This document shows positions 17,347 to 41,152 of a stretch of DNA of 64,000 nucleotides, one piece after another (positions within the stretch are counted from its first letter, which is position 1; every line of letters begins with the position of its first letter). The notes beneath the pieces were generated by a model, which was not told the origin of the DNA, did no database searches, and was given only the letters and a program-made list of their open reading frames with translations. Source of the stretch: Octopus vulgaris (Eukaryota). The position numbers and the translations under genes were made by a program. Where the stretch lies: positions 57,040,001 through 57,104,000 of the forward strand of contig OX597828.1 in NCBI GenBank assembly GCA_951406725.2, given 5' to 3'.

Positions 17347-17412
<66 letters not shown>

Positions 17413-17795: not shown

Positions 17796-17808
17796 TTATG
17801 GATCAATT
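17796..17808 (-). promoter_or_regulatory. Conserved upstream box A (sense AATTGATCCATAA), copy upstream of 15925-17049
   Basis: Exact 13-mer TTATGGATCAATT (+ strand), also at 25210-25222 and 41140-41152, each 650-820 bp upstream of a minus-strand CR start codon. Confidence 0.6.
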
Positions 17809-18440
17809 TTCTCCATATGCAAAGCGACATCTAAGAGCTTGTGAATAATAGCAATTGAAAACAATACCATGACATTTGCTTCATTTAACTTTTAACTTTG
17901 TAGTTGTTATTGTTCTTCTTTTCAATTACACAGACCGTAACATGTCGGATGAAATACATTTTCTAGTTTTACTTAACAGTATTAACTATATTTCATTTAA
18001 TAGATACAGATAAACAGAATTTTGGTCATTTCCCAAGAGAACATTTTCTAGATTTCACGTAAAGTGGTTTTCCAGCCAATTTTCATTTTCTTCCTTTCAT
18101 TGTTTTGTAATTTATCTAGTGCTCGTATAATCACTGTGATTATTTTAATTTAAAATATTTCACATTCTCGCTCTTTGAATGTCTAAAACTTTATACATAA
18201 AAAAGGTTTTTCAATTTCTCTTAATGACATTCCATTGGGGCTGGAGGGAGTATGACATATCAAATGTCTTGTGATTATTTGAATTTGCTTCAAGAAAGAA
18301 TATATTTTTGGAAACATTTGTTACAATATATCGTGCATCTTGGATTGATTTGTCTGTCTATATGTATGATTGTTTATAGAATAATTTAATATGCATCATT
18401 ACTAGAAACTGTTTTTAAAATTCTGTAATACGCAAAAATA

Positions 18441-18750
18441 TCTATTATATAAAATCCGTTCTGTCTGTCTGTGTATGTGTCTTCTATGATCTCGGGCTTC
18501 CTAGATCTGATTGCGTTCAAATTTGATATGTAGATACCGACGGTATCAGGGCGTGTATATGTCTTGCAAAAATTACAAAATCGCTTCCAGGTGAGAATAC
18601 GATCGATAAAGCCGTGGGAACGTGCATTTGTACGCGCAAGTACATCAGCTGTTGCGATCGATCCTACGCGTACGCGAGAAAAATGCACGTGTAGTTTCCT
18701 ACATGTTTTATCGGATAAACTTGTTATTGTCCCAGGTACGTTCTCATAAA
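18441..18750 (+). mobile_element. Possible non-autonomous Helitron 5' end
   Basis: A|TCTATTATATAAAA start followed by (CTGT)n, typical of Helitron 5' termini; CpG-rich interior; no convincing 3' hairpin/CTAG found. Confidence 0.4.
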
Positions 18751-21700
18751 TTCATCATGCTTTTCCATCTAGATTTACATCCAGCTAACCCATTTGCATG
18801 CATCACTTTTGTTCTTTCGTCAACCTGTACATAACTGCACCTTCCATTTTTTGTTCTTTTTGTACTGCTTAAAGACACGTTTCTTACCTGCCAAGCTTAC
18901 TGTTTAAAACATGTTTGTGTTCTCCCAGTTAACAGCCTTATCATTACTGGTACTTTAAACTCTGCAGTTGCATATTCGTATGAATAAAATCGTTTTTCTT
19001 TGGAATAGAAAACAAACCAGTTTTTATTTTGCTGCTGTCTCAAATTTAGGGTAAATCAGTGTTTCTCAAAGCGGAGATCTATCGGAGAGTCGGACAAGTT
19101 GTTTTGAGAAAATTTGGTTTAAATGTTTGACAACTCAGCACCGTCCATTGGACGTTTTGCTCATTCTTTATGAAATTCAAACTCATGTATATTTATATTT
19201 ATCGGATCTCCGTAAAATAATCACTTGATTAGCTCATGTAAATACGCTTTAAGAACTGTAATACTATTGAATCTCATCCTTAGTAGTTACCTTGCTTGTT
19301 AAGAGATACCAAATTTTCCCCAGACCAGCACAGTGACTTTTACTGAAATTGTTCTTAAATTCTTGGAAATTATTTTCTTTCTTTTACAAATTTTATATTG
19401 ATCTCTGTTATCTTTACAGGACTAAGAGAAAAGTTTCAAATTACTGGACAATTATTTTGCGTACAACCTTTTCTTCATAAATTATCAATCAGATCTAAAT
19501 TCATGAGGTTTAACCGTTTTCATATATTTCCATTCGCTCATTTCTTCCATCAATTTGGTAGTAGAGACATTTCCTGACAAGTTAAACTTAATGCTACAAG
19601 ACACCGAAAAATTATTTTCTCATTATAAACTTCCTAACTGTGAAGAGCAAAAAGCTAGGACTTACCTGCTGATAGAAGAATATATTCGCACTTAAATAGA
19701 GATGCAATTTGAGATATATTGCAAAATCCCTACGCTACCTTTTAGCCCTGTGTTAATATAACATCTTTATCAATTTCGGCAGTAAATAATACAGTACTAT
19801 AAAAAAACAAAAACAAATAACGCACAACAAATTGTTTTTAATAAGAAGAACGAGAGTTTATTCAAACTTGGAATTGGCGGGGTGCATATACATGTTAACA
19901 TTCCTATAATTGAAATATTATTTGTAAAGTGCAAAATATTGTGACAAGAAGATATATATTATTCGTTTCCAGATGTAAACTAATATACGGTGAAAATAAG
20001 GGGCCACATGCTATGTGAGCGACCAATATGAAGATATCTGCAAACTTTTCAGTTCCTTCGGTTGGTTTGGATTTTATGTAATACAAATATTGTGCAATAT
20101 TGTGTTATTTCAGAGGTATTAGTATGAGGTTGTTTTAATATTCATTTCAGTTCCAGGGAAATACGTAAATCGATATTAAGCATTATTTAAAGAAACTGCG
20201 TAATAAGAATACATCGGATTACATACATTTGCATCAATAATGAATATTGATTGTATACGATGCCTCTTAAGCAACCATAGTTTTTATATTCATGCATTTT
20301 GTGAACAAATTATAAAACTATAATTCCATATAGGCTATGTGTATGTGTGGCCGGTTATATCTATGCGAGTGTTACTTTTCTGTATGAATCCTATTACACT
20401 AGTTGCGTTTTCTGATAGAGATTTGTGTCAACATCAGTTTTAGCGCAATTCTAATTTACTTCTAAAAAATATAATCTCCTACTCTTCTCAACCGTGGCTT
20501 TTCATAGGCATTTTCTTTACGAAACACATACAATCTCGATGTTTACATGTATTTATATTACTTATTAGCTTAACCAGATATTGCACAATATTGCGCTTTA
20601 CTTCAAAATTCATATTCACGACACTTGTAAAATGTTTGATTTAATCAAATTTGCATGATTGACAGAATTGATATCATCAGGTTTTAAATATTTCAAAAAA
20701 ACAACAGGAAATATATTAGGCATTTTATGGTAATAGTTTTTAATGGTTTTATGGCTTACGTACTATATTTAATATTATAAATAAAGCGTAGTCTATTCAG
20801 TATTATATTTGAGCATACTTAGAATATGTAGTATTATATATGCGACTACTAAATAACGACTGGATAACATTATATGTAATGAAACAAGTGGCACCTGCCC
20901 TAGATATGATGGTAAAGACTGGAATAGAATACTAAGGGATTGTGACAAAGCAAACGGGGTGAAAACGTGCTACAAAACCGACAAATATCAAGGAGTGGTG
21001 TTTGTAGAGGCCGCAGCCCATGGAGAACTACCCCGTAGATTTAGGAAAGCTCTAAAGTAGACTAAACTCAACATTAAGATCTTTGAAAAGCCAGGGAACG
21101 GAATATTATATCTGAATTTGTGAGTTTATGAGTTTATAGACTGCAGATGGCGTGTGGGTATATTATGTGTGCGACATATTGTGTGCGGTTGTGTGCATGA
21201 ATTTCTGTGCAATTATTATTTGTGCAAATGTTTCTTTCATTATCAGTAAGTGTATTATGAGGCAAGTGTATGCATGGCTATGAAATTCGTACTTATAGGT
21301 GCGTAAGTATTCGGGCATTCACTCTTGTGCGGGATTTTATGCTTCTTTGCGTTACTTGCCGGTATATTGTGAAACAAATGTGTTATAATCTAGTATGTAG
21401 ATATATATGTGTGGATGCATTACTGCAAGATGCTTTTGTAACTGTGTATGCGCGTTTATGTTTCTCTCATAATGTGGTGGATAAGTTTGGGTTTTTTGGA
21501 TAGGTTTCAAAATGAAATGGTGAGTGGACATAGGTTTATGCATTTATCATGTGTATCTGTGTATATGAGTGTGTGTGTTGTTGTATAGGCTTTTTGTTTG
21601 TTGTGTGTCCTGGCGTTACATCGTACGAGCAAATGCATAAGTAGTTTACATGGCTGCGTATATATATATATATGTGTGTGTATGTGAGCGTGTGTCGAAT

Positions 21701-21985
21701 ATAGCGGATGTGTGACTCATTTACATGTATGTTTTTTGTATTGGAACTATCCAAGCGTTATGATAGATATGCTTATGGATATGTTGTGGAAGATAAATGG
21801 AGTGTGTGAATATACTACAGTATGTCTTGTTATTCTGTGTATGAGTGAATGCAAAATATTATAGATATTTGTGAGTGGTATCTTGTTACAAGGCAAATTG
21901 TATATTAGCGACATTGGATGAGCAATACATATGTGGGTTATGTGTGGTTCGAAGTGTGGTAGAAAAATAAGGTAGTGGCGAGTAC

Positions 21986-22039
<54 letters not shown>

Positions 22040-22085
22040 TGTGTGTGTGTATGTATGTATGTATGTATGTGTATGCATGTATATA

Positions 22086-22141
<56 letters not shown>

Positions 22142-22163
22142 ATACATATATTTATATATATAT

Positions 22164-22218
<55 letters not shown>

Positions 22219-22719
22219 TATAAATACATGTGTGTGTACATATGCAAACATGTATGGGCGCATGTAAAGAAACGTTTACGAAAAAAGTTGACAATACATA
22301 CATTGATATTGAGCAGATTTCATGAACACAATTTCGTGACATATCAATCACGCTGGTCCATTCTTTCTAATCTCGCTAAAATGTTCGTGGTGATATCGTT
22401 TTCAGTAAGCTTAGGTGTATGGTAACAGGGAAATAGAATTTTTCTTTTTTTTTGCAAGTGATATGTTAAAAGAATATATGTTGCATTCAGTGTGGGTCAT
22501 CCTTATTAATCTTGGCTTTCTTATGTAGAGATGGATGTGGTTTTCAGAACGTTTTCTTGTACTGTTACATACTAAAAAATTGTATTCTTGACGACGCTGT
22601 TGGTGGGCATGATTGCTTCTCAATAACTGTGTAGTTACATGCACAGTTATTCATATGTGTGTTTGTGTTTGTGTCTGTGTGTATGTATATATATGTATAT
22701 GTTTATGTATGCATATATA

Positions 22720-22754
<35 letters not shown>

Positions 22755-22783
22755 GTGTGTGTATATGTATATATATATGTATA

Positions 22784-22825
<42 letters not shown>

Positions 22826-22836
22826 CACACACACAA

Positions 22837-22917
<81 letters not shown>

Positions 22918-23254
22918 TTATTATTTGAGAGAATAAAATCCAAAACTACAAGAAAAATTCAATCTAGAAATAATAAATCAAACTTCACACAATATAATTT
23001 ATATATAAAAATTAGAGAAAAAACACCTTTTATCAATTCAAAATGAACAATTAAATTACACCATCTAGAAAATTACATATAATAAAAATATTAAAATTAA
23101 AATAACAATAAAATGTCAATGATTAATAGTTTGCCAGAAATAATAATAAAAATAATATATATATAGATATAGATATAGATATAGACATGCATATATGCAT
23201 ATGCATGTGTATATGGAAAGTTTGGGTGTATTGACAGTTGCATTATCATGTCTA

Positions 23255-24394
23255 TTAAGATAATACAACATAAATCATATAGATTAACAAAAATATAACA
23301 GTGCCGAACAAAAAGACCATGTCAAGCTTTTGATATGCATACAGATGTCTCTTAGAGTGAATTGTAGTTTGTAAGTTTAACTTTTCATCATAAGGCTGGT
23401 CAATTGTTCCGATTTTATTCTTGGACCCTGTTTGTTTAAATCTGAATTCTGGTATGCTATTAGTTCTCACTGCAGACTGGTTGACATACATTTTACACCC
23501 AATTATAGAGATAAGGGTAGAAAAGCCGCTGACAAGTGTCAGAATTAAGAGATATAACAAGTACCTTGATAACACGAGGGACTTCGTGCCCAATACTTTG
23601 ACCGTTTCTGTCAGATAGACAACATTGGCAAGGAAAATTGTGATTGCAACTGAAACCTTCTCTCCCGATTCAGCAGGCAATAAATACACCCCTAAGTTCA
23701 GTATTGTCAGCATTATTGGGAATATGAAGTGTGTTAATGTTTCACTCATAAATTTTCTTTTTGCGAAAATAGTAACACTAGCCGATATGATTTCCTTTTC
23801 AGTAATGTTCCCTACAGCAAACTTATATTCCCACTGATCTGCAGCCGCGTTATGCAAGTTGTTAAAAGAAAAGCTTTGCATGTTTTTTTCTATATTCTCC
23901 TGATGACCCAGGCAGGCGGTAATATTACATTCATGTTCATCTAAAGGATATTTAAGCATATTAATTGTGCAGTGAGTTTGGAAAATTCCATCCATATGTA
24001 AAGACACTGATCCATCATATTTTACAGTGGCCCCTTCTCCTTCATGTAGAGAAAATTTGCCTGACATATCGTTACATATGGAAACAGTGGGGTACCATAT
24101 GTCATCTACATTTACGCTTATGTAAGTTATATTTTTCATTGTTGCATTCCACAGCAAGTAGATATCTTTCCATGATAAACCAAGCACAACTTTGCTGATA
24201 AGTAAACCTTTTTGAATATCTAATTCAATTATTTTAAACATTTCAAGCAATACATCTATTTTCACTATGTCTTCATCATTATGGACAGGCCTCTCGGTTT
24301 TCGTGTAATTTTGAAGCAACATTGATCGCAGAATGCTTTTCTCAGAAATAGCGTTTACATTAACCGCTAGTAATAAGATAGCTATGAATTTCAT
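23255..24394 (-). CDS. Chemotactile-receptor-like Cys-loop channel subunit, 379 aa, uninterrupted CDS; closest paralogue of 15925-17049
   Basis: Signal peptide; NYTKTERPV; WYPTVSICN; Cys-loop CTINMLKYPLDEHEC; PAESGEKVSVAITIFLAN; 4 TM segments. M1-M3 region differs from 15925-17049 at about 17 of 90 residues. Confidence 0.96.
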   Translation of the reverse strand: MKFIAILLLAVNVNAISEKSILRSMLLQNYTKTERPVHNDEDIVKIDVLLEMFKIIELDIQKGLLISKVVLGLSWKDIYLLWNATMKNITYISVNVDDIWYPTVSICNDMSGKFSLHEGEGATVKYDGSVSLHMDGIFQTHCTINMLKYPLDEHECNITACLGHQENIEKNMQSFSFNNLHNAAADQWEYKFAVGNITEKEIISASVTIFAKRKFMSETLTHFIFPIMLTILNLGVYLLPAESGEKVSVAITIFLANVVYLTETVKVLGTKSLVLSRYLLYLLILTLVSGFSTLISIIGCKMYVNQSAVRTNSIPEFRFKQTGSKNKIGTIDQPYDEKLNLQTTIHSKRHLYAYQKLDMVFLFGTVIFLLIYMIYVVLS

Positions 24395-24686
24395 TGCTGT
24401 TGTATGGAGGTAAATTATTTCTTCCTCTTGTTGGTTTGTTACTTTAAAGGCCCCAGTAGTTTTCGATTTCTGAATTAACTTGAAACGTTAAATATCCATG
24501 TAGAATAAGCACTCAGCTTGACGAAATATAATTGTATATTTTATGCATGAAATTATGTAAAATATTTGGCTTTGACAAAAGTCTGTTTCAGAAATTCTAT
24601 CGACAGAAGAAATGTATAAGCATGCAGACAAGATTTCTCGCTAAGATTGCATGAGTTCTCTACATTCAGTAGCTTATGAAATTTTG

Positions 24687-24718
24687 TGAATATCAGCAAC
24701 CTTTATCTTCAGCCAAGT
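24687..24718 (-). promoter_or_regulatory. Conserved upstream box B, copy 2
   Basis: TGAATATCAGCAACCTTTATCTTCAGCCAAGT, about 293 bp upstream of the 24394 ATG. Confidence 0.55.
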
Positions 24719-25209
24719 TACAATGAATTAATTTCTTTCACATACCGTCGCTCTCAAATGATCTTCCCTAAACTTATTTGACAGTCATGATTTTCTGTCC
24801 TTTGACGCTCTAACCCCTCTCTGTCTCTCCATATTTCCCTCTCCTCTCTCTCTCTCTCTCTCCCTCTTTCATCTCTTACGCTCCCATTTTCCGTCTTTGA
24901 TTATAGCTACCTTTATTTTATACCATATATTTCTGTCCTTTTTTGTCTTACAGGATTGTGCTAAGTATTTGTTTCTAAGTATACTTAAAAGCGGTTTCAA
25001 CTACTTTGATTTGAAATACTGAATCATTACTTACATTCTATAATCATTTAATTAATAAAGATCTAGTAAGATAATATTATAAAACAAATCCTCGGAGACT
25101 ACAAGCGACGGGACATAACAGATGTATATTGTAACTGTTGTAATATGTATAAAATGTTGTTTCTAACACTGAATAAGCACTGAGTATTGTTATTGTGTTC
25201 ATTACTTGT

Positions 25210-25222
25210 TTATGGATCAATT
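25210..25222 (-). promoter_or_regulatory. Conserved upstream box A, copy upstream of 23255-24394
   Basis: Exact TTATGGATCAATT, about 816 bp upstream of the ATG. Confidence 0.6.
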
Positions 25223-25807
25223 TCCTTTTATGCATTTTGTACAAAGGAATACGCATAAGTACATAACAGCATTTCAAACCGATCCCTTGTAATATTATTT
25301 GTATACAAAATATCTTTGTCATTTTTGAGTAACGCATTCAGCGAGTTAAAATGTTCTAAATTGGTCCCAGTAAAAATAACAATAAGATTGTTAACAATAT
25401 AAAACTTTATTTGTTTGCTTTTCCGGGACAGACGAGAAGGCAAGTCCAGGTATTTCTTGCATGACATTCTATTGCTCAAAATGTTAAACACATATTGAAA
25501 CACACATTTCTATGCACCTAAGCACGCAGAAATATTTAATTTCCGCACAAACAAACGACTAAAATCTACAATAAAAGCATGAGATAAATCTGCCACATAA
25601 ACTATCAATATATTATAGAGTTCCCTAAAGATAAAAAAGCAAAATGATCTCGATAGACGGAGCAGAAAAACAGAACGTTTTTACAGCGGGTTTTCATTAA
25701 CACAGGCAAATATATAGAGAGATAGAAGTGTACAAACACACGCACGCACATACACATAAATTTTCAAGATCACACGCATACTTACATACTTACATATTTA
25801 TATTCTT

Positions 25808-26020
25808 CTCTTTATTCGTTTATAATTTTACTTCTTTCAATCGATTCACTGCGGCTATGCTGGAGCACCTCCTTTTAGTCGAACCTATCGACCCTAGGAC
25901 TTTGTAAGCCTAGTACTTTTTCTATATTTCTCTTTTGCCGAACCTCTAAGTTACGGGGACGTAAACACACCAAGTTCGGTTATCAAGCGATGTTGGCTGG
26001 GCAAACACATACACACACAC
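25808..26020 (-). mobile_element. Octopus microsatellite-containing SINE, 3' half
   Basis: Homologous to 11226-11432; adjoins a (TATG)n tract. Confidence 0.75.
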
Positions 26021-27029
26021 ATACATATGTATGTATGTACGTATGTATGTATGTATGTATGTATGTATGTATGTATGTATGTATGTATGTATGTATGTAT
26101 GTATGCATGTATGTATGTTTTCTAAAGCACTCCTGTCGTCAAAAATATGTACATACATTTTTATATCGAAAATAAGCAAAAGGACACGGGAAAAGAAATA
26201 TTGAAATGAACTTTATTCTTTAATTTATTCGCTCAGTCGTTTGATATCATCACAAGTTATATCACCTATATATCAGGGTTTATGCTGTGTGAGGTTGAGG
26301 TTTGAATTTCCCTCATCATTTAGACTATTTTAACTTCGTTTTTTCTCGCTTGTAAACATTTGATGCAAATAATATAAATTTTACTTCTAATGAATTGTTC
26401 TACTCTAACCATAGTAAAACCTCTCACCGTTTTATATGCTTCTAATTTTCTTCATCCAATTCGATTCTATATATTGTTATATAGTCCTTCAAAACAGCTG
26501 TGGTATTGTGAGGATGTCAATTACTCACTCTATCTAAAAATGGTGACAGTTGTTGTTACATAAACGTAAACATTGTCAGACATCTTTTTATGAATTCCGT
26601 GGCCTTTCTGAAAAATAGTGAAAATTGTTCGAAACTCGGTTGGAGTTCCACTGTGTACTTCAAACATGCTAGGTTTAATAAATGTGTCCAGCAACTCAAC
26701 ATAACCAGCAGCATAAATCTAAGTCCTTGTGGGAAGAAGCAACGTCTTATGACAGGTTCGTCGTTGTTCTGCTCTCTCAGAAGAGGCAAACATTCATATT
26801 TCCTGGAAAAGGGCGGTGCATAAATCTGTGGGTATCAGAAATGATCTTCACATAAGCATTTGTCATTTCCTTTAGACTTTTGAGTTTCATGGAAGTTTTA
26901 CCACACCAAAGTAATAATGCTAGCCAAATTCAAGAGGGTTAATTGGCAGATAGGCACGGATCAAATGATTTTGAGTCTATTTTACACATATAAATAGGTC
27001 TCTCAATATATACCTACATCTAATACCCC

Positions 27030-27370
27030 CTTACTTACTTACTTACTAGTACTTGTGGCGACATTTACCCTGGTCGGTTTGAGTCGGCTTCTTCCTTGGA
27101 AGAAATTTCTTGGGAATATGTGGATTTCACAAGCGGTCCCCAACAATCCCGCATGTAGAGACATCCTGTTTGCCGCAGATTGTCAGCAGACGCAGGGACA
27201 GAACGACCGAGTAGCCGCCGTTTGCCGAAACCGACACTCCGAGGATTTTCACCAGAGCGCCGTCTGCCGTGTTGTGGCCCTAATACCACTCGGTGTCAGA
27301 CCAATCCACCTTGGGTGGCCCTACCAGGAACCGAAGTTCCCGTCGGCATAGTTCTGACACTGACCGTTGC
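27030..27370 (-). mobile_element. Short GC-rich retroelement, probably RTE-derived non-autonomous, with (GTAA)n tail
   Basis: Minus strand AGAACTATGCCGACGGGAAC..GTTCCTGGTAGGGCCACCCA resembles RTE 5'-UTRs and ends in (GTAA)4. Confidence 0.4.
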
Positions 27371-27849
27371 CAGCGTGTGAGGAGAGGATGTCCTAATAAC
27401 CCACCACTCATACACCTGAAGTACTTTGAAGATAGACCTCACTTATTTGCTATGATCATCATCGATAATATTTTGAAGCCCTTGAACGAATCAGAGTGTC
27501 CTTATTGAGTCTGAATATTCAGAATGTTTTGTTCTTTTCAATAGAGTTGAATAACTCCCCCCAGAGACTTTCAATTCAATCTAAAATTTGTGTATAAAAG
27601 ATCTTGCAAAATTTAAAAAGTTAACAAATTTTAAATCACCGGCCCCGTTTATTTGACAACAATGACTGCATGTCTATTAATTTCTTGTAGTTGCATTTAT
27701 CGCCATGGAGATTATTAAACTGATAATTATGAAATGGTACCCAAAAGAAAATAGAATTTCACAATATTATTTTATTCATTTAGATTTACATGTTTACACT
27801 TTTACATGTTTACAATTTTATTGCAATTTGAATTATTCTACATTTCAAA

Positions 27850-28530
27850 CAATGTCGACATCCAGGCGCGTTTCCTCTATTCGAAGCAATGCTGAAACTC
27901 TTGCGAAGTTTTTTTCTCTCACCTCTTCCACATCGGCAAATTCCTTAGCATCAGCTTTTGTCACCATTGTTGAACTTCGAGGAAAGGTCTTGGCCAGCTT
28001 CTAACTTTTCTTTCAGTTCACGACTCCCATTCAGTCGTGACTGGTTTTGATCTTCTGTGAGTAAGTGAGGTACAAATTTTGCTGCAACTCTTTTCATTCG
28101 CAATTTCTCGATCAAATTTTGTGTGCAAGAGCTCCTGGACACAAGAGTCATATCACAAATTTCGTCAATAATTTGGTAACGGTCCTCCAAGACCAGTTCA
28201 TGAATCTTCATGAAGTTTTCATTCGTTTAGGAGGTGCCCGGTCCTCTTGAGCGCGGTTGGTTATGAGTGACCATACTTAAAGCGTGGTAACCACTGGTAA
28301 AAATGTTTCGCTCATGGCAGCGCGCTTGCAAGCTGTTTGAAGTATGAAAACTGTTTCAGCCGCCGTTTTCCCCAGCAGGAAACAGAATTTTATGGAAGCA
28401 CGTTGTTCGTTCGTTTCAGCTATCGGAAAAATCGACGAACAGGGGAGAGGGACTGCAAAACAAAGATGCTCCACGTAGCAGTAGGAATATATCAGACGAC
28501 GCCAGTCGGCAGACTAATGCGTTAGGTTTG
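27850..28530 (-). mobile_element. mariner (Mos1-like) transposase pseudogene, internally deleted
   Basis: EQRASIKFCFLLGKTAAETV (HTH), ..ELVLEDR...EI, LRMKRVAAKFVPHLLT (WVPHEL-like), GDKS; frameshifted. Confidence 0.9.
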
Positions 28531-30036
28531 TAGCTGTTGATAGAAATTGCAGCTGTTCCATTTTATTTTGATTTTTTCTCTTTTAGCACGAAGTCATTTC
28601 TTTTAAAGGAAATCAAGAAGTCGATACCATCGACATTTGTATTTACCTCCTACTCATTTGGTCTATAACGAAATTGTACGAGCGAATAATTGAAATAAGC
28701 AAAGTTTGAACCAAGAAGAGAGATGTATTGATTTAATACAGGTAACTACAATTAAACAAAAGTTGCTAACCATTTTAAGTTTATTCTCTCATTTAAATGC
28801 ATTTTATATCTATAAAAATTATCTAAATACACGGAACATCCATTACAGATTATTACAGCATGTGGATACTTTCCCATAGTTTTTTTTTATCTCCTGGTTC
28901 ACAATTCTTCCAACTATTGATACTGATGTTACGTGATTTTATTTTCTGATTCAACATTAGTTCTCAATTCACACATATCGCTAAGAGATGTTATTTTTGC
29001 TATTTAATACCATACTCTGTGGTGATTTTACATCTTGTATTAGTAAAGAACAACTGAGATAAAAAAATAATACATGTGATTCTGTGGGCTAGGGTTAAAA
29101 TGATCTAATTCTGTTAGCTTGAAGGTAAATGTAAACTTGTGTAATCGCGTAGTACATTAAATAGAGAAGTTTCATTCTGATGACACCATTACTACTATAC
29201 ATTTGTGTTTATGTATATAGGCTGTCGGTTTTATTGTGATTGTAGGTGTGATGACTTTATTAACCTGCGTGTGTAGGCGATGATTATATATACATATTTC
29301 CCGCGAAAATTTTTCATTTCTCTTTTATTGTTCCCTCCGCACACTGGATATTTTGCATTCATTTTCAGATTTCATGAACCGCTATTGAATTGGATTAAAC
29401 AAACACGATAACATATGAAATATTCATAACTAAGTCAGTTATGTATTCAGTGAAAAATATATTTTAATGTATAAGTGCTTATTGAACAAACAATAATATA
29501 CAATACGCAAAGAGAGAGGAACTGCTAAGCTTCATCACATATATTTCTTAATGTATTGCTATAACGAAATAAAGCAATATACTGCGACAGACAGAAATGG
29601 TATGCCGCTATTGCTCATTTATATATACTTGAACTGCTGTGGCCATTTTCCAGGAATGAGTGAAATATTGTAAACACTGTAATACTTTTTCTCCAAATTA
29701 TGAATTATTATAGAACCTCGAAGACTGATAGTATCACTTAAACTACAATGTGTCCGTATGGTTAAGCGCCGCATCAGGGTCAACTCTCTTCTATTGTAGC
29801 CGCGAGCGTTGTGAATGAATTTGGCAGATGGAAACTGTGCAGAAGCCCAATGTATAACTATATATGTATAGGGATGTTTGTGTGTCTTTTTTCTTTGTTC
29901 TTCACCTCTTGGCTATCAGAGGTAGTTTGCGTATGCCAAAGCAGTATTGCAACTTTGCTTTAAAAAAACTAGATACTGTAGTTGATTTGTTAAGGTAGAT
30001 CATTCAATGTGAAACAAGGAGTGAAACAAGTAATAT

Positions 30037-31860
30037 GAGTATTAAAATTCAAAATTGTTTTAATGTTTTTTGCTTCCTATAATTTCCAACTTTTTCATAA
30101 AAGGAGTCATTTTCTAGTATGGACAATGCTAGGAATTTATAGTATTATGTGGCCATCACTACCACAGCACTACCTTTTTCTGCTTCTTTGATTATCAGGT
30201 CTTTGTCGCTTTTTAGCTGTAGTAGGTATTTTCATTGTATGGTGTTCAGGTTAGGTACAATTTTTAGTTCATAGATAGTGAGAGGAAAATTCTGGATACG
30301 GTTCTAGAAGTTGCCTAGTGTTTTATTCCTTCCTTTGAGTGGTAGATAATTACTTTTGTCTCTCATTAGTGATTCATCATCGTTGTTGTAGTTGGTTAGT
30401 GCTTCTAACAATCGAAGTTTTCTACAGGATTCTGCAATGTTATCTTTAATTTCATTGGTGTTGGGTCTACGTGGAGTAGGTGTAAATTTTAAACCTGTAG
30501 CTAAAATACGGAGTTTTGTTGTGGTGAGAGATTTCTTAGATAAATTAACCATTTTGGGTTACTCTTGTAAGATATATTCCAACGCGTGTCCCTGTGTCTC
30601 TCTATTCTGTCTAAAAAACGCTGTGTGTTGTAATTAGGCTAGAAAGTTTTAGCGGTGTCAGGATTGCTATTGTGGGAGAATTGTTGTGTAGGTAAGTTTG
30701 TTGGGATTATGTGGTGCGGGTGTTTATGTTGAAATGAGTTGTAGGGGTGTTCTAACCAGAATGAGTTGTATGGGTGTTGTAATTAAGTTGGAGGGACTTC
30801 TCAGTGTTAGGGTTGCTATTAATGGCGGAATCTTATTGTAAGTGTGGTGGTGGTTGACATCCCAGTGGGGTAGATTTATGTGTCTGTGTTGGATGTTTGA
30901 TCTGCGTGTATGATTATTGGTTTCTGTGAATGAATCTGTTTTGGATTTTTTTTTAAATGGGCTTGTCTGAGTTGTAGTTCCATTCACAGTCGTCTTTCCA
31001 TAGTATAACAACATTTTGTAGAAGTTGTTCATTGGCATGTATCGTGAATTCCGTGTTCATCTCGTCATCGATTGTTTTATTCTTTTGTTCATGATTCTCA
31101 TCTCTGTGTTTAAGTAGTTCAGTTTCTGTTCTAGTAGTGCTAGTTTCTCTCTGAGGATTCGTTGTTGATCTGGTACATCTGGGGTGGATTTGATTTGGGG
31201 TTTGCGTGGCAAGCTTGACGGTGTGGAGTTGATCCATTTTTCATATATTTGTGCCTTATCGTTATTTTTTACCAATTTCCCGAATGAGAGTTTTCTGGTG
31301 TTGCGTTTTTGGGCCAAAGCGGTTTTTAAGTAGGCCTGCTGAAATTGGTGTGTTTTCATTCGGAGTGGGTGATTTTGTAGTGAATCTGTTATGGGATTCT
31401 TTGTGGAAAAGTTAGTAAACAAATTATTTAATATAGTGCATAACTCACGTTTTACTTGCCCTTCCCTGTAGAATTGTTTCTTTGAAATTTTTCTAAGTCT
31501 TCAAGTTTTTGGTGGTATAGTCCATTGATTTTGTTGGTTAAAGTGACTATATGATGTGAAGGGTTTCTCCTTGTCTGGGTGAGGAAGTAGTAGTACTGAA
31601 AGTTGAATTCTTATGCTGAGGAGTAGGTAGGATCCCCTGCATGTTTCTAGTTGTTTTTGGAAAGAATTGAAATAATTGTCATTATTATTATTTTTCTAGT
31701 CTTGGGGTGTTTCTTACTGGTATTTCCTATTAATGGAGATTCGTATTGTAAGGCTAGTAGTGGTTAACTTCCCAGAGGTGGTGTAGTTTTGTGTGTCTCT
31801 ATTGGAAGTTTGATCTGTATGTACTATTATTGGTTTCTGTTGATGTATTTGTTTTGGATT
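30037..31860 (-). mobile_element. Penelope-like retroelement remnant (N-terminal region and RT start)
   Basis: VNLSKKSLT...ILATGLKFTPTP...RKLRL and LKSDKDLIIKEAEKGSAVVVM motifs; stops and frameshifts. Confidence 0.8.
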
Positions 31861-31864
31861 TTTC

Positions 31865-32680
31865 CGTATCCAGAATTTTCCTCTCACTATCTATAAACCA
31901 ACAATTGTACCTAACTTCAACAACATACAATGGAAGCACCTACTACAACTAAAAAGCGACAAAGACCTGACAATCAAAGATGCAGACAAAGGTAGTGCTG
32001 TAGTAGCGATGGACGCAGAATACTATAAAAACCTAGCATTGTCCATACTAGAGAATGACTTATTTTATAAAACAAGTTTTCAATTTATAGGCAGCAAAAA
32101 ACATTACAAAGCCTTGCAACTTTAATACTCCGAGATGGAAAAGGCCTGACAGGAAAAAAAAGAGTACATCACAAACCTCAAATGCAAATGACACCTTTTC
32201 TATGGCTTCCCCAAAATCCACAAGAGTCAAATAATTACTAATGCCTGAAAATCAAATCCAGGTCTATACATAAATATCCCAATATCAGAAGACTTAAAAT
32301 TAAGGCCTATTATTGCTGGCCCAGCCTGTGAAACACACTGCGTAAGCAGCTTTCTGGACATACTATTAAAACCTTTCCTCAAATACATTAAATGTTTCAT
32401 TAGAGACGACATGGTCATGCTAGAGCAACTACCAAAAACTACCAACGAAGAAACTCTATTAGTCTCCTTCGATGTCATCAACCTCTACACTAACATTCCA
32501 TATGAATACGGAATAGGGGCGATCAAATTCTGGTTAGAAAAATACTCCGAGGTTCTCCCGGACCGCATAAACCAGACTTTTGTCATCGAATCCCTATGGT
32601 CATCCTACAAAACAATTACTTCCTATTCGATACAATATACTACCTCCAAAACTGCGGTATTGTGATGGGAACAAAAGACC
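31865..32680 (+). mobile_element. Penelope-like reverse transcriptase remnant
   Basis: LKSDKDLTIKDADKGSAVV, FYGFPKIHK, LRPIIAGPACETH, LVSFDVINLYTNIP, LQNNYFLFD...YLQNCGIVMGTK. Confidence 0.9.
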
Positions 32681-33353
32681 CGGAAATGATGAGCATTCTA
32701 AATACGCACAACGTACTAAAATGCGAATGGCAAGACAAATCACTCAACAGGCTTACATACAACGGAAAGTCCATTTGTTTTAGACGTACGATCGACCTTG
32801 GTGTATAAACATATGCTGGTTTGTATGCGTGTGCAAGCGACCACAGGTATATATACATATGTTGATACTTCAGTTGTGAAGTATGTGAACCTGTACATAC
32901 ATGGGTGTGCGAATGTTTACGTTAACTCTAACGCACTCAAGCGATCAACAATACCAGCTCCAACAAAGAATTTGTTTCACCTAACTACGTAAGCTAAATT
33001 TCTACGTTATTTCGAACGAATCTTTTGCATTTTACAAAAATGCAGACGTCTAAATAATATATTTATTATTCATTATGATAAAATAAGTTATTTTCTTGCT
33101 TTTGTGTTACGAAACAAATTTTGCGTGAAGTTTGTTAGGAAGAAAGAAAAGAAGAGGAGAAAGAAAGGGGGACGATAATATTAAATAGTTAATGTCTTTA
33201 AGGGGGAAAATGGTTGATAAAAATAATTACCTGGTTCATTAAAAATTTAAGATCCAGTTCACTGGGTGAATCTTTACTGTTTACTTATTTTTATGTAGCT
33301 TTGACTTTAATGCCCCAGTGAAACAGATACATACCACAGGGCTTATTCAAAGG

Positions 33354-33422
<69 letters not shown>

Positions 33423-34334
33423 TGCATGTATATATGTATACACACACACATGGGAAGACAAAGAGAAAAAGAGAGAAAGAGAGAGAATCAGACAGACAGA
33501 GTGATACATATATTAACTGTGCAGTTGAAAATAGGTATAAATTAATGTCTCCTTTCTATTTTAGTGAGACATTTTTCTCCATACTATGTGAATTTATCTA
33601 ATGCGATGTTAAATATCTGAAACTTAGTGAACCACATTTCAATTCTTTCATCTTCATTTCTATTATGCCATTATTTAACGTTATCTTTCCAGGTCATATG
33701 AATATAATTTACGTTTTATCCAAGGTCACACTAATTGCTACAACACTTATACGATGTCGAAATCCATAGCATGATACATAATACATGTTATACGAACATA
33801 TTTACGTGTAAAATTTCATTATCTTTACTGACAAGCTTTGCTGTCATAATTTATAAATAAGCTAAAAATATGAAGAGTCTTCTTTTTGGTTCGGTGTTCA
33901 AGGAAATATCACAAATTTTAATATCATCGTCATTTCCATCAAAAATAAAACAACTTTTAATTTCATTTTTACTTATTGCTGTGTAACTTATATTGAATTC
34001 TTTATCTGTTATTTGAAGATGTTGAATGTGGAAATTTTGCTTCAGTGCTCCTAGCAAATTGAAGAAAAAAATTATTGATAAGATACAATAATAATTAAAA
34101 GGCTTCACAGAATATTTCTCTATGTAGTTTTTGCCTTAAAATAGAAGACTTCTTCGTTATGTATAAAAGGATATTTCATCGATTTTTTCGTTATTTTATA
34201 TATATATATATATATTGATGATCTGTATGGTTTCTGAGTAAGCGATCAATATTCACTCACATATATACAGACCTCTTTCATCTGATCTACCATTTATTTC
34301 ATTATATGGTTACGTCACTTTCTCTCTCTCTGTC

Positions 34335-34395
<61 letters not shown>

Positions 34396-34494
34396 TTTTC
34401 TATACTCACTTCCTCTCTTCTCCTTTGTCACGCTTCCTTTTGCTCCTTTCAGAGACTGTAGCACATGTGTTTTACATCATAACTTTACAATTAG

Positions 34495-34912
34495 CTGGGG
34501 TAGTGACATGGCAGAGTCGGCAGAAGTCTGGGTAAAGTACTTTGCGACATCCGGTACGTTTGTACGTTCCGAGTTCAACTTTCCCCGCCGCGATCAATTT
34601 TGCTTTTCCACCTTTTGCGATTGATAAAATGAATACCAGTGGAGTACTGCGGTTGATTCATGGACTTCACATTCCTCTCAAAAAACTGACTGTCCCGTGC
34701 AGAAATTGAAAATATTGCGGCGGGCCGGTAGAATCGTTAGCACGCCTGACAAAATGCGTAATGTTATTTCTGAGTTCAAATTTCGCCTAGTCCAAATATG
34801 CCTTTCATTCTTTCCGGACCGATAAAATAAAACTACCATTTCATCACTGGTCCCCATGTAATTGTCTTATCCCCTCCGCAAAACGTGCTAGTTTTGTTCC
34901 AAAATTGGAAAA
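34495..34912 (+). mobile_element. Two head-to-tail decayed octopus-type SINE copies (about 34495-34712 and 34716-34912)
   Basis: Each has GGYAGA.TCG...GAGTTCAA.TT..GCC...TGCYTTYCA..CTTT...GATAAAAT..A.TACCA; same family as 4658-4838. Confidence 0.7.
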
Positions 34913-35806
34913 CAATATTGGAGTTAACTGATAGAGTTTTCAGATGATTTATTTATTAAGAGTTGGTATATTACATTAACTACTCTGAAACATTATGTTA
35001 TTATTACGATAAACACGTTGTTATATCATTTTAGACTCAAGTTCGTTAAGTCATGAATAACGTCATGTTAAGTGATTATTTCAGAAATTATATCCTATGA
35101 AGTAAGTCTTTTAGATTTAATTCATATTTATATAAAAGTTAAAATTACCGCCTGTAAAAGAGAAATCAGCGTTGGGTTTATACAATAGAGTACATTTTCA
35201 GTACTATAGCTCAATAGAGTATGAGTCAAACATTTACATTAGATACACTATATTGTGTCTTTTCTTTTCTACATAGAGAATCATTTCAAGTTATATAAAC
35301 TAGAACAGTATATTAATTATTGTATTAACAACTTTTCCCGGCGTTATTCTTTCGTAACATATATAAATATATGATAACAGAGTATAAACTATACCTTTAT
35401 ATACGCCCTCGGCATGATACACATAGAATCCATATACCCATTAAATCACTCTTTACTATCTTATGAATACGAATACACCCAGCGGAAAAGTATTTAATAA
35501 TATAAAATATTTGGGGACAATGATGCCATAATTATAGCATCACTTCGTTTGAACACAAGACCTATGGATCAGGTATAACCAACAGGTAAACAACTAATCG
35601 TTCGACAGAGACTTAAAGTACTTTTTTATTCTTAAAGAAACTGAGAAACACTCCGACACGTCAAAGGTAAGCCCAGGGGATATATAAGAGCGTGTTTAAA
35701 AGGAGCATAAAGTATATTATAAACATTTTCTATGAAAAGTTTAAAGGTAAGTCTTACGCGGAAAATATTTTCCAAGCGTTTGTTCTATATATATATATAT
35801 ATATGG

Positions 35807-35837
<31 letters not shown>

Positions 35838-36438
35838 CATATATATATATGTGTGTGTGTGTGTATATATATATAGATATATACAAGTATATCCCTTCAA
35901 TAATGATAAGGTGGGGAATACAAATGCCAAACTTGGTTGAAACAATAACGTAATAATGAAAATCCTTTGGTTAATATCTATCAAAGGAAACCAACACAAA
36001 TATACTTTAATGTATAATATTACAAAATAAATAAAAATTAAATTCCAACAAAAAATTTCAACAGAACATTTACCGATATGTAAGCATATATTTCTTCTTT
36101 GCTTGCTCGATTTTTAACCAAAGAAAGGCCTCGAAACTATACAGTCTTACCTTTAATATGTCTCACGTTCTACTTCACATCTTCCTCTCCTTTACGTAGA
36201 CTTTGAGTAGCATCCTACTGTATTTTCTTTTTTACTCCTCCATGCCTGCTGCTTCGTTATTTCTACTTTAATAAGCTTCAACGGAACAACAATTGTCCTA
36301 CTTTGTCTCCTGTAACCAAGGGACATACACATGTGCAGAGAAATATTGATCACATTTACCGAGTAAGATGATTTGCATAAAACAAAATAAGTAGAAGAAA
36401 TACTTCATACAGTTCGGTAGCATGTAGATGAGCTGTTA

Positions 36439-37186
36439 CAGCGTGTCCCAACAGTCACTATGAGTTTCAAGTTTTAGTAACTTCCTTAAACTTAGAAATA
36501 AAAGCATGATATGTTGATACTATATAAAGGACATAATGGAAAGTAATATGCACTAGTCAAATTTGGCAACATCACTACAGTACAAATAAAAAATGACATC
36601 GCTTAAATGGCATCCGTTTTCGGCTTCGCAGGCCGTGCACCTTCCAAAACCTGCACCATAACACCCTCAAGAGTTTCAGATCCCATTTCTCTGATTGCAG
36701 TACCGGGAGATTATTCTCTCGCTAAAGCATTGCCGTAGCATATGCATTGTTTATCTTGCAGTATGGCAGTCGCCCCATCTAGCTGAACCATGTATGAAGT
36801 CTATTTCGAATGGCCTTCATGTCACCCAGTGTTGAATAACCCGGATTTGCCTTGTGGAGATACCTGAAACGGAAGGTTTACATCAACAAAGCGGAGACCC
36901 TGGCGCAACTGAAGAACATCAAAAGAGAAATCAGAGATATGGGGTTTGTAATTTTGTAGGATGTTATGGTGCAAATTTTGGAAGGATCATGGGCATGCGA
37001 AGCTGAAACTGGCTGCCATTTAAGCGATTTCATTTTTCATATGTGATGTGGAGTTGTCGCAAAATTTTCTTGTGCATATGGATTTGCATTATGTACTTTA
37101 TATTGTATCAAAATTTCCTGCATTTATTTGTGAACTTAAGGAAGGTATTAAACAATTAATGGCATCAATGACATTTGGGATATCTG
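36439..37186. mobile_element. Non-autonomous Tc1/mariner-type element with ~225-bp imperfect terminal inverted repeats and TA target duplication
   Basis: TA|CAGCGTGTCCCAA ... TTGGGATATCTG|TA; arms about 36439-36661 and 36962-37186; interior has a frameshifted W.Q.DGATAH-like transposase motif on the minus strand near 36757-36790. Confidence 0.75.
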
Positions 37187-37627
37187 TACAAATCGTGGTA
37201 TTTGAAATAACATGCAGCATAAAATTGTGGTTTATTCAATTTACCACTCCCTCCAGATAATGGGTCACAATTACCATTCGGTACTTTTGAATAGCATAGA
37301 CAATGCTAATATCTTTGATTACATTTTTCATAACTCATAGATATATGCAATATATATAGCAAATGTTTAAATATGTAACAAAGGAAACGGGAGATATATA
37401 TTTAAAACAATTTAATCAACCAAATTATTACAGAAATAGAGATCAATAAATTTATATATATATATATTCAAATAACAAATATAATCAAATTAATATGATG
37501 AATTAAAGTATTCGTAGCTATCTTCTGAAAGTTGTAGCGAAGGAAAATATTTTTTATAAATTTGTGCAATAACATATATATATCCAGCTATCTATATGCA
37601 CACACACACACACATACGCATATATAT

Positions 37628-37718
<91 letters not shown>

Positions 37719-37727
37719 ATATATAAA

Positions 37728-37936
37728 TTTAAACGGAGTCTGGATAGATTCCTTCAAGGAATACCAGATGAGCCACCCATAATTGGATACAACTCACCCA
37801 ACAAAAACTCACTACTTGAATGAACCATAAACGAAACTTGACTTAAACAGGATTCAGATAATCCTATCAGGTGTGCTATTAAGTTAGACATGGCCTGGAA
37901 CAATCTTTGGTCGAAATATATCTAAGTTTTATCTAA

Positions 37937-37941
<5 letters not shown>
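37728..37941 (+). mobile_element. CR1/L2-group LINE 3' end
   Basis: FKRSLDRFLQGIPDEP...NSLLE* C-terminus, short 3'-UTR, tandem tail (ATCTAAGTTTT)2; embedded in TA-rich repeats. Confidence 0.75.
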
Positions 37942-38001
<60 letters not shown>

Positions 38002-38355
38002 CGGAGATGGACTTGCATAACAAGTGTCTTGATCTACGATCATGTGTTGCAACAAAAACAATTGCAGCGTGTAAGGTGTTTATAAGGCATTTAAAAACGG
38101 ACAAAATCTGTTACATTCACTTCAAGATTTTAATTTAATTTGCGACAAAATATCCAAACTGCGACATGTTCACTGACAAAATTATTGTCAGTGAACAGGT
38201 CGCGGTTTGAAAGCGATGAAAAATATTTTGACACGAATAAATCTAAATGCTGAAGTGAATGTAACGGTTCTTTCTGCGTTATTAAATGGCTTATAAACAC
38301 CCTCCACGTTACATATGTACACACACACACACACACACACACACCCATATATATG

Positions 38356-38436
<81 letters not shown>

Positions 38437-39132
38437 GTTTGTGTGTGTAAACATACATACATACATACACATGTATACTACTGTGTGTATGAAAACATAT
38501 CAATAGTTTCATATTTACATATGGTGCAAATTATCAAAGATCCGAAATTAAAGACTGATTTAAGTCCATATTCCAAGGTGCAATGCGTCACTTCTTTTTG
38601 GTTGAATTAAATTTATTTCCTGGACTAAACTACGTGAGATTTGGTTTCTAAATAAGCGAGAATTTGGTTTAAAATACTTGCACTAAACGTAATGCATTAC
38701 CTCGATGTATTCTGGAAATTATCAAATCTCGTTTTGTATCAACGGAATATTCACTGAATATTCCAGTTACGCTCTTAACAAAAGTTAACAAAATCCTCCG
38801 TTCAGTTGCAATTTTATGCGCAAGAACTATATCACAATATTACGAATTTAAGGAGTCTAATGTTATATATGCATATATATACATATGTGTGTGTGTATAT
38901 ATATGCATATGTAGGTATTTATATGCGTATACATGATATTATATATATATATAAATATACATACATATATATATATATATATATATCATATAACACATAT
39001 AAAGATACTTATCATCTGTCTGTCTCTCACTTTCTTTTTCTTTCTCTTTCTCTTTATGAATATATATACATATATATACCTGCAAGCATATTTATCTACG
39101 TGTGTGTGTGTATATATATATAGATATAATAT

Positions 39133-39262
39133 AGCGGTTCGGCATAAGCGACCGATAAAATAAGTACCAGTGATACAAAGAATAAATCCACCGTTTGATT
39201 CCTTCGAGTAAAAGAGCGGTGCTCCAGCATGACCACAGTCAAACAATAAAAGAATAAAAGAA
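39133..39262 (+). mobile_element. Octopus SINE 3' fragment about 135 bp downstream of the 39398 stop codon (antisense to the gene)
   Basis: GCGGTTCGGCA...GACCGATAAAATAAGTAC...GCGGTGCTCCAGCATGACCACAGTC...(AATAAAAG)n tail. Confidence 0.7.
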
Positions 39263-39332
39263 TATATATACATATATATGTGTATATACATGTATTTATA
39301 TATGTATATATATATATGTATATATATTTGTG

Positions 39333-39363
<31 letters not shown>

Positions 39364-39397
39364 ATACACACACACATATGTAAATTTATATGAATAT

Positions 39398-40492
39398 TTA
39401 CATCAGTAAGCCAAAAATTATTATGAGTAGCAGAGACATAATAGTTACTGAGAAAAATATGTATTTCTTTCCACCACGAATCATACGTTTAAAAACATCA
39501 GCAAATTTTCCTTGTGTATTTTCTTCATCTGGGCTTTCTCGGATACATGTTTTACGTTGTGAAGTGCTTGGTTCAGGACTGATTTTTGTTATTTTGACTT
39601 TATTGGTAGAAATTATCGAGGCAAAACATGAAAACCCACTGATGGTTGTCAGAAATAAGAGATACACTAGATATATAGAGAAAGTTCGAGAATTATTAGA
39701 CATTAGTTGAGACGCTTCAGAAAGAAGAACAATATTTGAGAGAAATAGTGTAACTGCATATGAAACTTTCTCTCCGGATTCAGCAGGCAATAAATAGACA
39801 GCTAATATCAGTATTGTCAACATTATTACGGGTATAACTTTTGTTACTGTTACTAATGTGATTTTTCTTTTCGCTCGAATTACTGCGGTAGCTGTGAAGT
39901 TACTTTCTGTAGAATTTGGCAAAAGAAACTCCCATTCATGGAATTCATTTTGAGGCCTTAAGTTGTATGTACAGCTACTAATCACGGCTTCTGATCTTGT
40001 CTTCTCTTCCATGCAAATTTCTAAATGACACATGTGCGCATCAAAAGGATATTTCTCCATATTGATCTTGCAGTATGTATCGAAAATTTTCTCTGTGTAT
40101 AAAAACACGATTCCATCATGTCGTACAGTAACTTTTTTATCCTCATCAAATTTTGATTTTCCTGTTACACTGTTACATATCTGAATGATTGGATGCCAAA
40201 TTGCGTTTGCTTTGATAGTTACCCTGCTTATATTACCCTTTAATGTTTTATTCCACGCAAGATTAATATCGTGCCATTTTGCTCCAAGAACAAGATTACT
40301 TGTTAGTACACCTTTTGAAATATCTAATTCAATAATCTCCCTTATGTCCAGGGACACATTTATCTTTAAGTTGCCAAAATTGTCGTTCATATATGTCACA
40401 AGGTCAGCGTAATTTCTGAATTCATCATTAAACAAAGTATTGTTTGACAGAACTGTCTCCGTTAACATAAAAAAGATTATCAATTTCATCAT
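39398..40492 (-). CDS. Chemotactile-receptor-like Cys-loop channel subunit, 364 aa, uninterrupted CDS
   Basis: Signal peptide; WHPIIQICN; Cys-loop CKINMEKYPFDAHMC; KRK pre-M1; PAESGEKVSYAVTLFLSN; 4 TM segments. The start could be the first or second Met. Confidence 0.95.
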   Translation of the reverse strand: MMKLIIFFMLTETVLSNNTLFNDEFRNYADLVTYMNDNFGNLKINVSLDIREIIELDISKGVLTSNLVLGAKWHDINLAWNKTLKGNISRVTIKANAIWHPIIQICNSVTGKSKFDEDKKVTVRHDGIVFLYTEKIFDTYCKINMEKYPFDAHMCHLEICMEEKTRSEAVISSCTYNLRPQNEFHEWEFLLPNSTESNFTATAVIRAKRKITLVTVTKVIPVIMLTILILAVYLLPAESGEKVSYAVTLFLSNIVLLSEASQLMSNNSRTFSIYLVYLLFLTTISGFSCFASIISTNKVKITKISPEPSTSQRKTCIRESPDEENTQGKFADVFKRMIRGGKKYIFFSVTIMSLLLIIIFGLLM

Positions 40493-40726
40493 CCAAAATT
40501 TGCTGGAGTCGTTCCCTTCACTCTACTTTTCTTGCCGATTTAGATAACAATTTAGAGGGATAAAATAATTTTTTGAGACAGACAGGTTAAATCTTCTTTT
40601 TCACTGTAGACTTATAAATTTCGCACGCTCAAGGAATTGTAAAAATACTGAAGTAAATACAGCAACGGTTTATTATACATATAACAGTGATTCCGTGAGT
40701 GTATGAGGGAGCTTTTGTGTGTGTAT

Positions 40727-40798
<72 letters not shown>

Positions 40799-40880
40799 GT
40801 GTGTTTGTGTGCAGTATGCTTGCGTGTGCGTATACATGCGTGTACATATATGTACATTAACTGGATGTTATTTAACAATT

Positions 40881-40912
40881 TGAATATCAGTAACTTTAGT
40901 TATTAGCCAGGT
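40881..40912 (-). promoter_or_regulatory. Conserved upstream box B, copy 3
   Basis: TGAATATCAGTAACTTTAGTTATTAGCCAGGT, about 389 bp upstream of the 40492 ATG. Confidence 0.55.
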
Positions 40913-41139
40913 AATATTTACTGAACGCAGAACTGATTTCTGTCACTTGTTCCTAATTTCAATAATTTATGAGTAAATATTGCCTTCGGACATTAATTAC
41001 CACGAATTCACAATTTTTGTATTTTCATATTTGCAGATGTAATTTTCATGCATATAATATGATACACTGTTTCCTTTAAAAGAAAAATCAATACGAGATT
41101 AATTAAGTAAGGCGTAATTGTAAATACAATCCTAGTAGC

Positions 41140-41152
41140 TTATGGATCAATT
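41140..41152 (-). promoter_or_regulatory. Conserved upstream box A, copy upstream of 39398-40492
   Basis: Exact TTATGGATCAATT, about 648 bp upstream of the ATG. Confidence 0.6.

Follow-up and report, generated by a model that had tools for sequence, protein, structure and literature searches.

An exact 13-mer upstream of three adjacent octopus chemotactile-receptor genes and a related octamer enriched across their cluster

The window analyzed here, a stretch of 64,000 nucleotides from Octopus vulgaris (G000:C15:57040001-57104000), lies inside a tandem cluster of chemotactile-receptor (CR) genes at about 56.91-57.42 Mb. Its subject is a 13-mer, AATTGATCCATAA, present in sense orientation upstream of three adjacent CR genes; on the plus strand it reads TTATGGATCAATT and is exact at all three sites, with no one-mismatch copies in the window. 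For the cluster we defined 24 intact genes and one truncated copy, and 564 kb was scanned on both strands. The three genes, given as open reading frames (ORFs), and the sites that accompany them are as follows.

15925..17049, minus strand: CR ORF, intact, single-exon, 374 aa, Cys-loop ligand-binding domain, ATG at 17049
17796..17808, minus strand: 13-mer copy 1 (AATTGATCCATAA), 747-759 bp upstream of ATG 17049
17817..17821, minus strand: TGCAT, POU half-site-like, 8 bp 5' of copy 1
23255..24394, minus strand: CR ORF, intact, single-exon, 379 aa, Cys-loop ligand-binding domain, ATG at 24394
25210..25222, minus strand: 13-mer copy 2, 816-828 bp upstream of ATG 24394, in a promoter alignable with that of copy 1
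25230..25234, minus strand: TGCAT within ATGCATAA, 7 bp 5' of copy 2
39398..40492, minus strand: CR ORF, intact, single-exon, 364 aa, Cys-loop ligand-binding domain, ATG at 40492
41140..41152, minus strand: 13-mer copy 3, 648-660 bp upstream of ATG 40492, with flanks not alignable to those of copies 1 and 2
41164..41168, minus strand: TGCAT, 11 bp 5' of copy 3

The downstream genes are chemotactile receptors: they are single-exon Cys-loop ORFs in a tandem cluster, and their nearest solved relatives are octopus CRs (for the 23255..24394 ORF, the sole ORF so searched, the CRT1 structures 8EIS and 9E6B, E about 4e-48). The 24-gene Cys-loop tandem cluster compares with up to 26 CRs in O. bimaculoides (PDB 8EIS, 9E6B; PMC11526382), and the passages of PMC11526382 on this family concern the receptor proteins and do not describe CR cis-regulation. 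The 17049 and 24394 genes are 63% identical to each other, and the 40492 gene is 37-38% identical to both. In a tree of the 24 intact genes, which leaves out the truncated copy and fragments, all three fall inside an 11-gene clade (100/100) with the 17049 and 24394 genes as sisters; the 40492 gene is a long branch whose placement within the clade is not settled, a single clade of the three being neither shown nor rejected (approximately unbiased test, p 0.43).

A first-pass annotation had reported identical 13-mers at 17796, 25210 and 41140, about 747, 816 and 648 bp from the ATGs, and we reproduced both the coordinates and these near-edge distances. It had also placed ATGCA within 8-11 bp of each copy; the pentamer is indeed there in all three cases, but the spacing is 8, 7 and 11 bases (plus strand). 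The 13-mer has the structure ATTGATCCAT and is imperfectly palindromic about GATC: one strand holds an ATCAAT core, which overlaps ATCCATAA on the other. Genome-wide it occurs 95 times (its reversed control 57 times), against 134-207 expected under Markov models of order 2-5, and is not the abundant repeat that the annotation had held up against its own proposal. Only these three of the 95 copies lie within the CR cluster, and only they form the composite of TGCAT, 7-11 bases and 13-mer.

In none of the three promoter pairs is a longer word shared than this one (14 nt for promoters 1 and 2, 14 nt for 1 and 3, 13 nt for 2 and 3). As a chance event in the third promoter, it was found in 0/5000 simulated promoters and 0/818 background tiles, and for a third copy to turn up among the 22 other promoters, with two words allowed, the analytic probability is about 9e-4; as a caveat, two promoters commonly share words of at least 13 bases (40/276 promoter pairs). 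Promoters 1 and 2 align, with 345/538 columns identical (64%) and a motif-removed score of 25.5 vs -21 for the best of 200 shuffles, and copies 1 and 2 therefore share the 13-mer by descent. With the word removed, alignment scores of promoter 3 against promoters 1 and 2 fall inside the shuffle range. The earlier description of the flanks as not alignable was thus correct for copy 3 and mistaken for copies 1 and 2. Its proposal of a phylogenetic footprint holds insofar as the word is non-random and has been retained in copy 3 where the flanks have diverged from those of copies 1 and 2, but two of the three copies are non-independent; the footprint rests on one independent copy (copy 3) and is significant, p about 1e-3. 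The 13-mer is unchanged in contigs X8 (copy 2; 7 substitutions in 546 bases, none inside) and X7 (copy 3; 4 in 349), as would be expected anyway of contigs differing by about 1% from the window, so this comparison has no power. At copy 3, contig X8 reaches only 7 bases past the word and shows 3 differences, one without a listed position. Orthologs of wider divergence are P0001 (80% identical) and P0002 (92% identical).

Upstream of the other 21 CR genes we found no further copy with 0 or 1 mismatch on either strand of the 564 kb, the scan yielding the three exact 13-mers and a single one-mismatch match downstream of a gene. The exact or one-mismatch 13-mer, at three of the 24 intact CR genes, is ruled out as a cluster-wide motif. 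The enrichment near other CR genes for which the annotation had called for a test was not found, and the gene at the right edge of the window (62992..63939) has no exact copy upstream, carrying instead GTCAATAA at -803 and, in antisense at -330, a match at 11 of the 13 bases. As had been noted, no exact 13-mer lies upstream of the divergent 1683 gene, which has only an antisense ATCCATAA octamer at 1326.

A shorter element extends further. The last eight bases of the 13-mer belong to the family RTC[ACG]ATAA, which was tested after TCAATAA appeared among the top words, and RTCAATAA is a close variant of them. We counted it, repeat-masked, in a held-out set of 19 CR promoters from which the three 13-mer genes and one of each near-identical pair had been dropped, and found 16 matches in 12/19 genes vs 3.8 expected (about 4-fold). 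Twelve matches vs 1.6 expected fall at -1100 to -550, the zone of the 13-mer, and a profile covering -6000 to +3000 is highest between -1200 and -600. Sixteen matches were reached by 0/400 dinucleotide and 0/400 trinucleotide shuffles, and RTCAATAA ranked first among 16,384 R+7-mer patterns (p 3.4e-7, 0.0055 after that correction), although a correction over all degenerate 8-mers would erase this significance if the likeness to the 13-mer were ignored. Its density is 0.79 per kb in CR upstreams vs 0.19 in 29 G-protein-coupled receptor (GPCR) and 0.15 in 29 protocadherin upstreams, control regions defined as upstream of ORFs that may not be promoters; 60 random flanks gave 0.18 per kb, and 409 cluster tiles fell within 0.15-0.19 per kb. 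When alignable paralogs were collapsed to 14 groups, RTCAATAA was present in 7-9 of them (p 0.0065-0.0002). It occurs on both strands in the other CR promoters, and RTCVATAA is found at 14/19 held-out CR genes as well as at the three 13-mer genes. A multiple alignment of distal blocks from 8 clade members gave no reliable common column for the site. The claim of a promoter motif shared across the CR family accordingly fails for the 13-mer and holds only in weakened form, through the shorter octamer enriched in other CR promoters. The 13-mer is real, narrower than first claimed as a 13-mer and broader as an octamer.

The explanation that we favor, with about even confidence, is that the 13-mer would be a conserved CUT-class (Onecut/Cux) site accompanied by a POU half-site. 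It would help to activate the three CR genes in sensory cells of the suckers, as part of a looser use of RTCAATAA across the cluster. The factor, its binding, the cell type and the activating direction are predicted from the observed sequence, position and enrichment. A CUT-class homeodomain protein (Onecut or Cux) is expected to read the 13-mer and help switch on the three genes, the pseudo-palindrome possibly offering it a site in either orientation, and other CR genes would use RTCAATAA in a single orientation. The 13-mer was probably copied with its promoter in tandem duplication and may then have been kept by selection while the flanks drifted. A POU factor at TGCAT could be a second input specific to the three genes, by analogy with Drosophila Acj6 and Onecut; as there is no cluster-wide enrichment of ATGCAW, a POU input, if present, would be peculiar to the 13-mer genes.

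The RTCRAT core is present as ATCAAT on the plus strand of all three copies. Measured against the full CUT consensus (A-rich 5', ATA 3'), ATCAAT is followed by T and not A, and the other strand gives GATCCATAA with a non-canonical C. The genome encodes an Onecut protein, with 74/81 CUT-domain residues identical to HNF-6, and a second CUT exon that we take, from its type of sequence, to be Cux-like; both CUT matches are above cut-off. The Onecut gene (L111, G000:C15:26641734-26644961) shares its contig with the CR cluster, at a distance of about 30 Mb, which is probably incidental. Of the cells in the paralarval octopus brain, 83% are marked by onecut (PMC9712504). ONECUT structures define an eight-base core that allows T or C at position 5 and C or T at position 8 (PMC11490551), which on the other strand can be read as RTCRAT and would match both RTCAATAA and the ATCAAT of the 13-mer. 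Pan-neuronal genes of C. elegans have the CUT-class consensus AATCGATA (10.1101/2021.12.10.472091), and a Drosophila supplementary table gives AATCAA and ATCGAT as Onecut cores and TGCAA/T as the POU-domain core (PMC4356613). The identification of ATCAAT as a CUT/Onecut core by the first-pass annotation is the best-fitting option, by way of the shorter RTCAATAA.

Several results weigh against this explanation. Onecut sites have an A-rich 5' flank, but R is preceded by A in only 1/16 RTCAATAA sites and mostly by a pyrimidine. The CUT consensus DRRTCVATND, fixed beforehand and fitted by the 13-mer, is only mildly enriched in the held-out promoters (31 vs 20.4, p 0.017), which have no occurrence of ATCGATAA, the CUT core with the best documentation (0 vs 1.5 expected); ATCGAT shows no enrichment in CR promoters. 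The other CR promoters likewise have no excess of ATGCAW (36 vs 45.8 expected). Binding of ATCCAT by CUT proteins was not confirmed in the open-access literature searched, and judging from PMC11490551 it would lack the purine contacted by a conserved serine. The 13-mer itself is confined to 3/24 intact CR genes, two of them non-independent. RTCAATAA was chosen post hoc from word counts, is missing from 7/19 held-out promoters, and was not recovered by a de novo expectation-maximization motif search, which gave low-complexity words only.

A real, selected site might be read by some other factor: an Abd-B/Cdx-class homeodomain, with its TTATGG/TTATTG core on the opposite strand, DMRT, or a PBX/HOX pair. 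Scored by the usual consensus sequences of these factors, the held-out promoters contain C[AC]ATAAA 25 times vs about 15 in shuffles (4-9/400 reach 25) and DMRT-like TGTA[TG]CAAT 5 times vs about 1 (2/400 shuffles), and RTCAATAA sites taken with their flanks resemble WKYRTCAATAA. We nevertheless regard this as unlikely: C[AC]ATAAA loses its significance when the RT prefix is lacking (30-39/400 shuffles), RTCMATAA followed by non-A keeps it (0-2/400), and YTCAATAA is not enriched (5 vs 3.6). The Abd-B-like and DMRT-like enrichments are weaker and largely overlap RTCAATAA sites, the DMRT matches being few and partly paralogous. The PBX/HOX composite of the earlier annotation proved weak. TGATNNAT is found 35 times vs 23.3 (p 0.014), but TGATCCAT in the 13-mer fits the loose pattern only, TGATTGA is not enriched (4 vs 3.7), and we know of no PBX-HOX half-site of the form CCAT. 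Su(H)-like, E-box and Meis patterns showed no enrichment in CR promoters.

Slightly less probable still, in our view, is a neutral leftover, with copies 1 and 2 alike by descent and copy 3 arising by chance or through a very short gene-conversion tract between neighbors. The alignment of promoters 1 and 2, the adjacency of the three genes, the frequency with which promoter pairs share words of this length, and a tree in which one clade of the three genes is not rejected all agree with it. It does not readily account for one word being the longest shared in all three pairs and absent from every simulation, nor for identity that ends at 13-14 nt with no conversion-like tract, and TGCAT stands beside all three CR copies but 0/92 other genomic copies. 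The enrichment of the related octamer in other CR promoters also speaks against it.

The 13-mer may alternatively act in the transcript or core promoter, as the end of a non-coding first exon followed by a 5' untranslated region (5'-UTR) intron running to an acceptor near -75. A donor-like GTAAT comes directly after copy 1 and a few bases after copy 2, TTAATTYAG/AAATC at -75 is common to the 17049 and 24394 genes, and working cuttlefish regulatory elements overlapped first exons and introns (10.64898/2026.09.23.753964). This is improbable, as no GT directly follows copy 3, the related octamer is found elsewhere on either strand, in the manner of a DNA site, and the window has no Rfam matches. 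Short low-depth contigs over the window, presumed to be RNA, showed no joints, and one 117-base piece at 24714-24830 may be DNA. Origin as a transposon or interspersed-repeat fragment is very hard to credit and is largely ruled out: several of the 30 non-CR copies compared (of 92) share flanks with one another in small families, but 0/30 have flanks like those of the CR copies, no repeat cover comes within 60 bp of any CR copy (self-comparison of 564 kb and the other 13-mer loci), and the genome has fewer copies than the Markov models predict. On C1 (L004, L005, L008) the 13-mer sits, in two places, inside a tandem repeat of about 32 bp, unrelated to the CR flanks.

The closest known parallel is the Drosophila odorant-receptor code (PMC3302810, PMC4356613), in which a chemoreceptor family likewise carries motifs within 1 kb of the start codon; expression of Or19a depends both on its Acj6 (POU) motif and on its Onecut motif, which lie within 1 kb (PMC3302810). 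There, different receptors have different motif combinations, the same pattern as here, and the side-by-side TGCAT and ATCAA resemble the listed Drosophila POU and Onecut cores (PMC4356613). The receptors are unrelated, octopus Cys-loop channels as opposed to insect odorant receptors. Binding and requirement have been shown in the Drosophila system and are predicted for the octopus element, which is an overlapping pseudo-palindrome with ATCCAT in place of the spaced Hox/Cut dimer of Drosophila. Its core geometry is that of C. elegans CUT sites (10.1101/2021.12.10.472091) and vertebrate ONECUT sites (PMC11490551), although, unlike at those sites, ATCGAT is not enriched. The octopus enrichment is CR-specific among the sets tested, with GPCR and protocadherin ORF upstreams at background, in contrast to the pan-neuronal worm sites.

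A broader scheme, which we put forward as speculative and doubtful, is a promoter code for the CR cluster. A CUT-class site at -550 to -1100 would license sucker-neuron expression, and subfamily modules (in three genes the palindromic 13-mer with POU half-site, in five others of the same clade a TGGGAAA-CTAA block) might choose co-expressed subunits and hence heteromeric receptors, a convergent reuse of the Onecut and POU logic of fly odorant receptors by an acetylcholine-receptor-derived family. CRs form homo- and heteropentamers (PMC11526382), and for this reason the CR genes that are switched on together shape what an arm can taste. The present finding supplies exact bases and a candidate factor, and leads to the prediction that the three 13-mer genes share cells. 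The kind of element is ordinary, its place new: we found no account of CR cis-regulation or of this motif in the open-access literature searched, a scope that does not take in the main Cell, Nature and Science papers on CRs. Reporter transgenesis in a cephalopod has just been reported, functional promoters not having been identified previously in the group (10.64898/2026.09.23.753964), and a test of the element is therefore now feasible.

The remaining features of the window are given below.

1326..1333, minus strand: ATCCATAA, an octamer antisense to the 1683 gene and 357 bp upstream of it, without a full 13-mer
1683..2798, plus strand: divergent CR ORF, 371 aa, 13-mer absent upstream
41249..41254 and 41322..41327, no strand assigned: ATCGAT (CUT core), two more sites upstream of copy 3
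41641..41648, plus strand: ATCAATAA, antisense to the 40492 gene, 1156 bp upstream
62992..63939, minus strand: CR ORF, 3' part, with its ATG 140 bp past the window edge

Some further regularities were seen in CR upstream regions. A GA or CA microsatellite lies between the 13-mer and the ATG in each of the three genes (17354-17426, 24831-24874 and 40733-40793), and purine-rich tracts followed by TATTTAA near -420 to -510, a possible core promoter, recur in other genes of the clade. At about -760 of the genes at 57.120 and 57.130 Mb there is TTATTGATCATAAG, which resembles the 13-mer minus one base at the same distance from the ATG. These two and the genes at 56.921, 56.943 and 56.966 Mb have, between -655 and -945, a block of TGGGAAA(A/T)CTAA followed by ACACTTAA or similar; all five belong to the same clade and are without the 13-mer, and a TGTGAAA variant is found at the 57.104 gene. 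AGGTATT(T) is enriched on the sense strand (10 occurrences in 22 promoters vs 1.9 expected); it lies at -200 to -360 of 7 CR genes (e.g. L034, L035, L033, L045, L049 and L043) and clusters near -250 to -300. A promoter element and a conserved splice donor in the 5'-UTR are both possible readings, and one carrier has no YAG acceptor within 130 bp of the ATG.

Between 50499 and 51323 on the plus strand of the window, a 274-aa ORF has a partial reverse-transcriptase match under the Pfam cut-off (E 8e-6) and is likely a remnant of a long interspersed nuclear element. Elsewhere in the cluster, G000:C15:57109949-57121624 (L055-L057, L059) contains the CR copy truncated to 220 aa, along with several CR fragments interrupted by stops, between intact, near-identical genes, and therefore points to recent duplication and decay.

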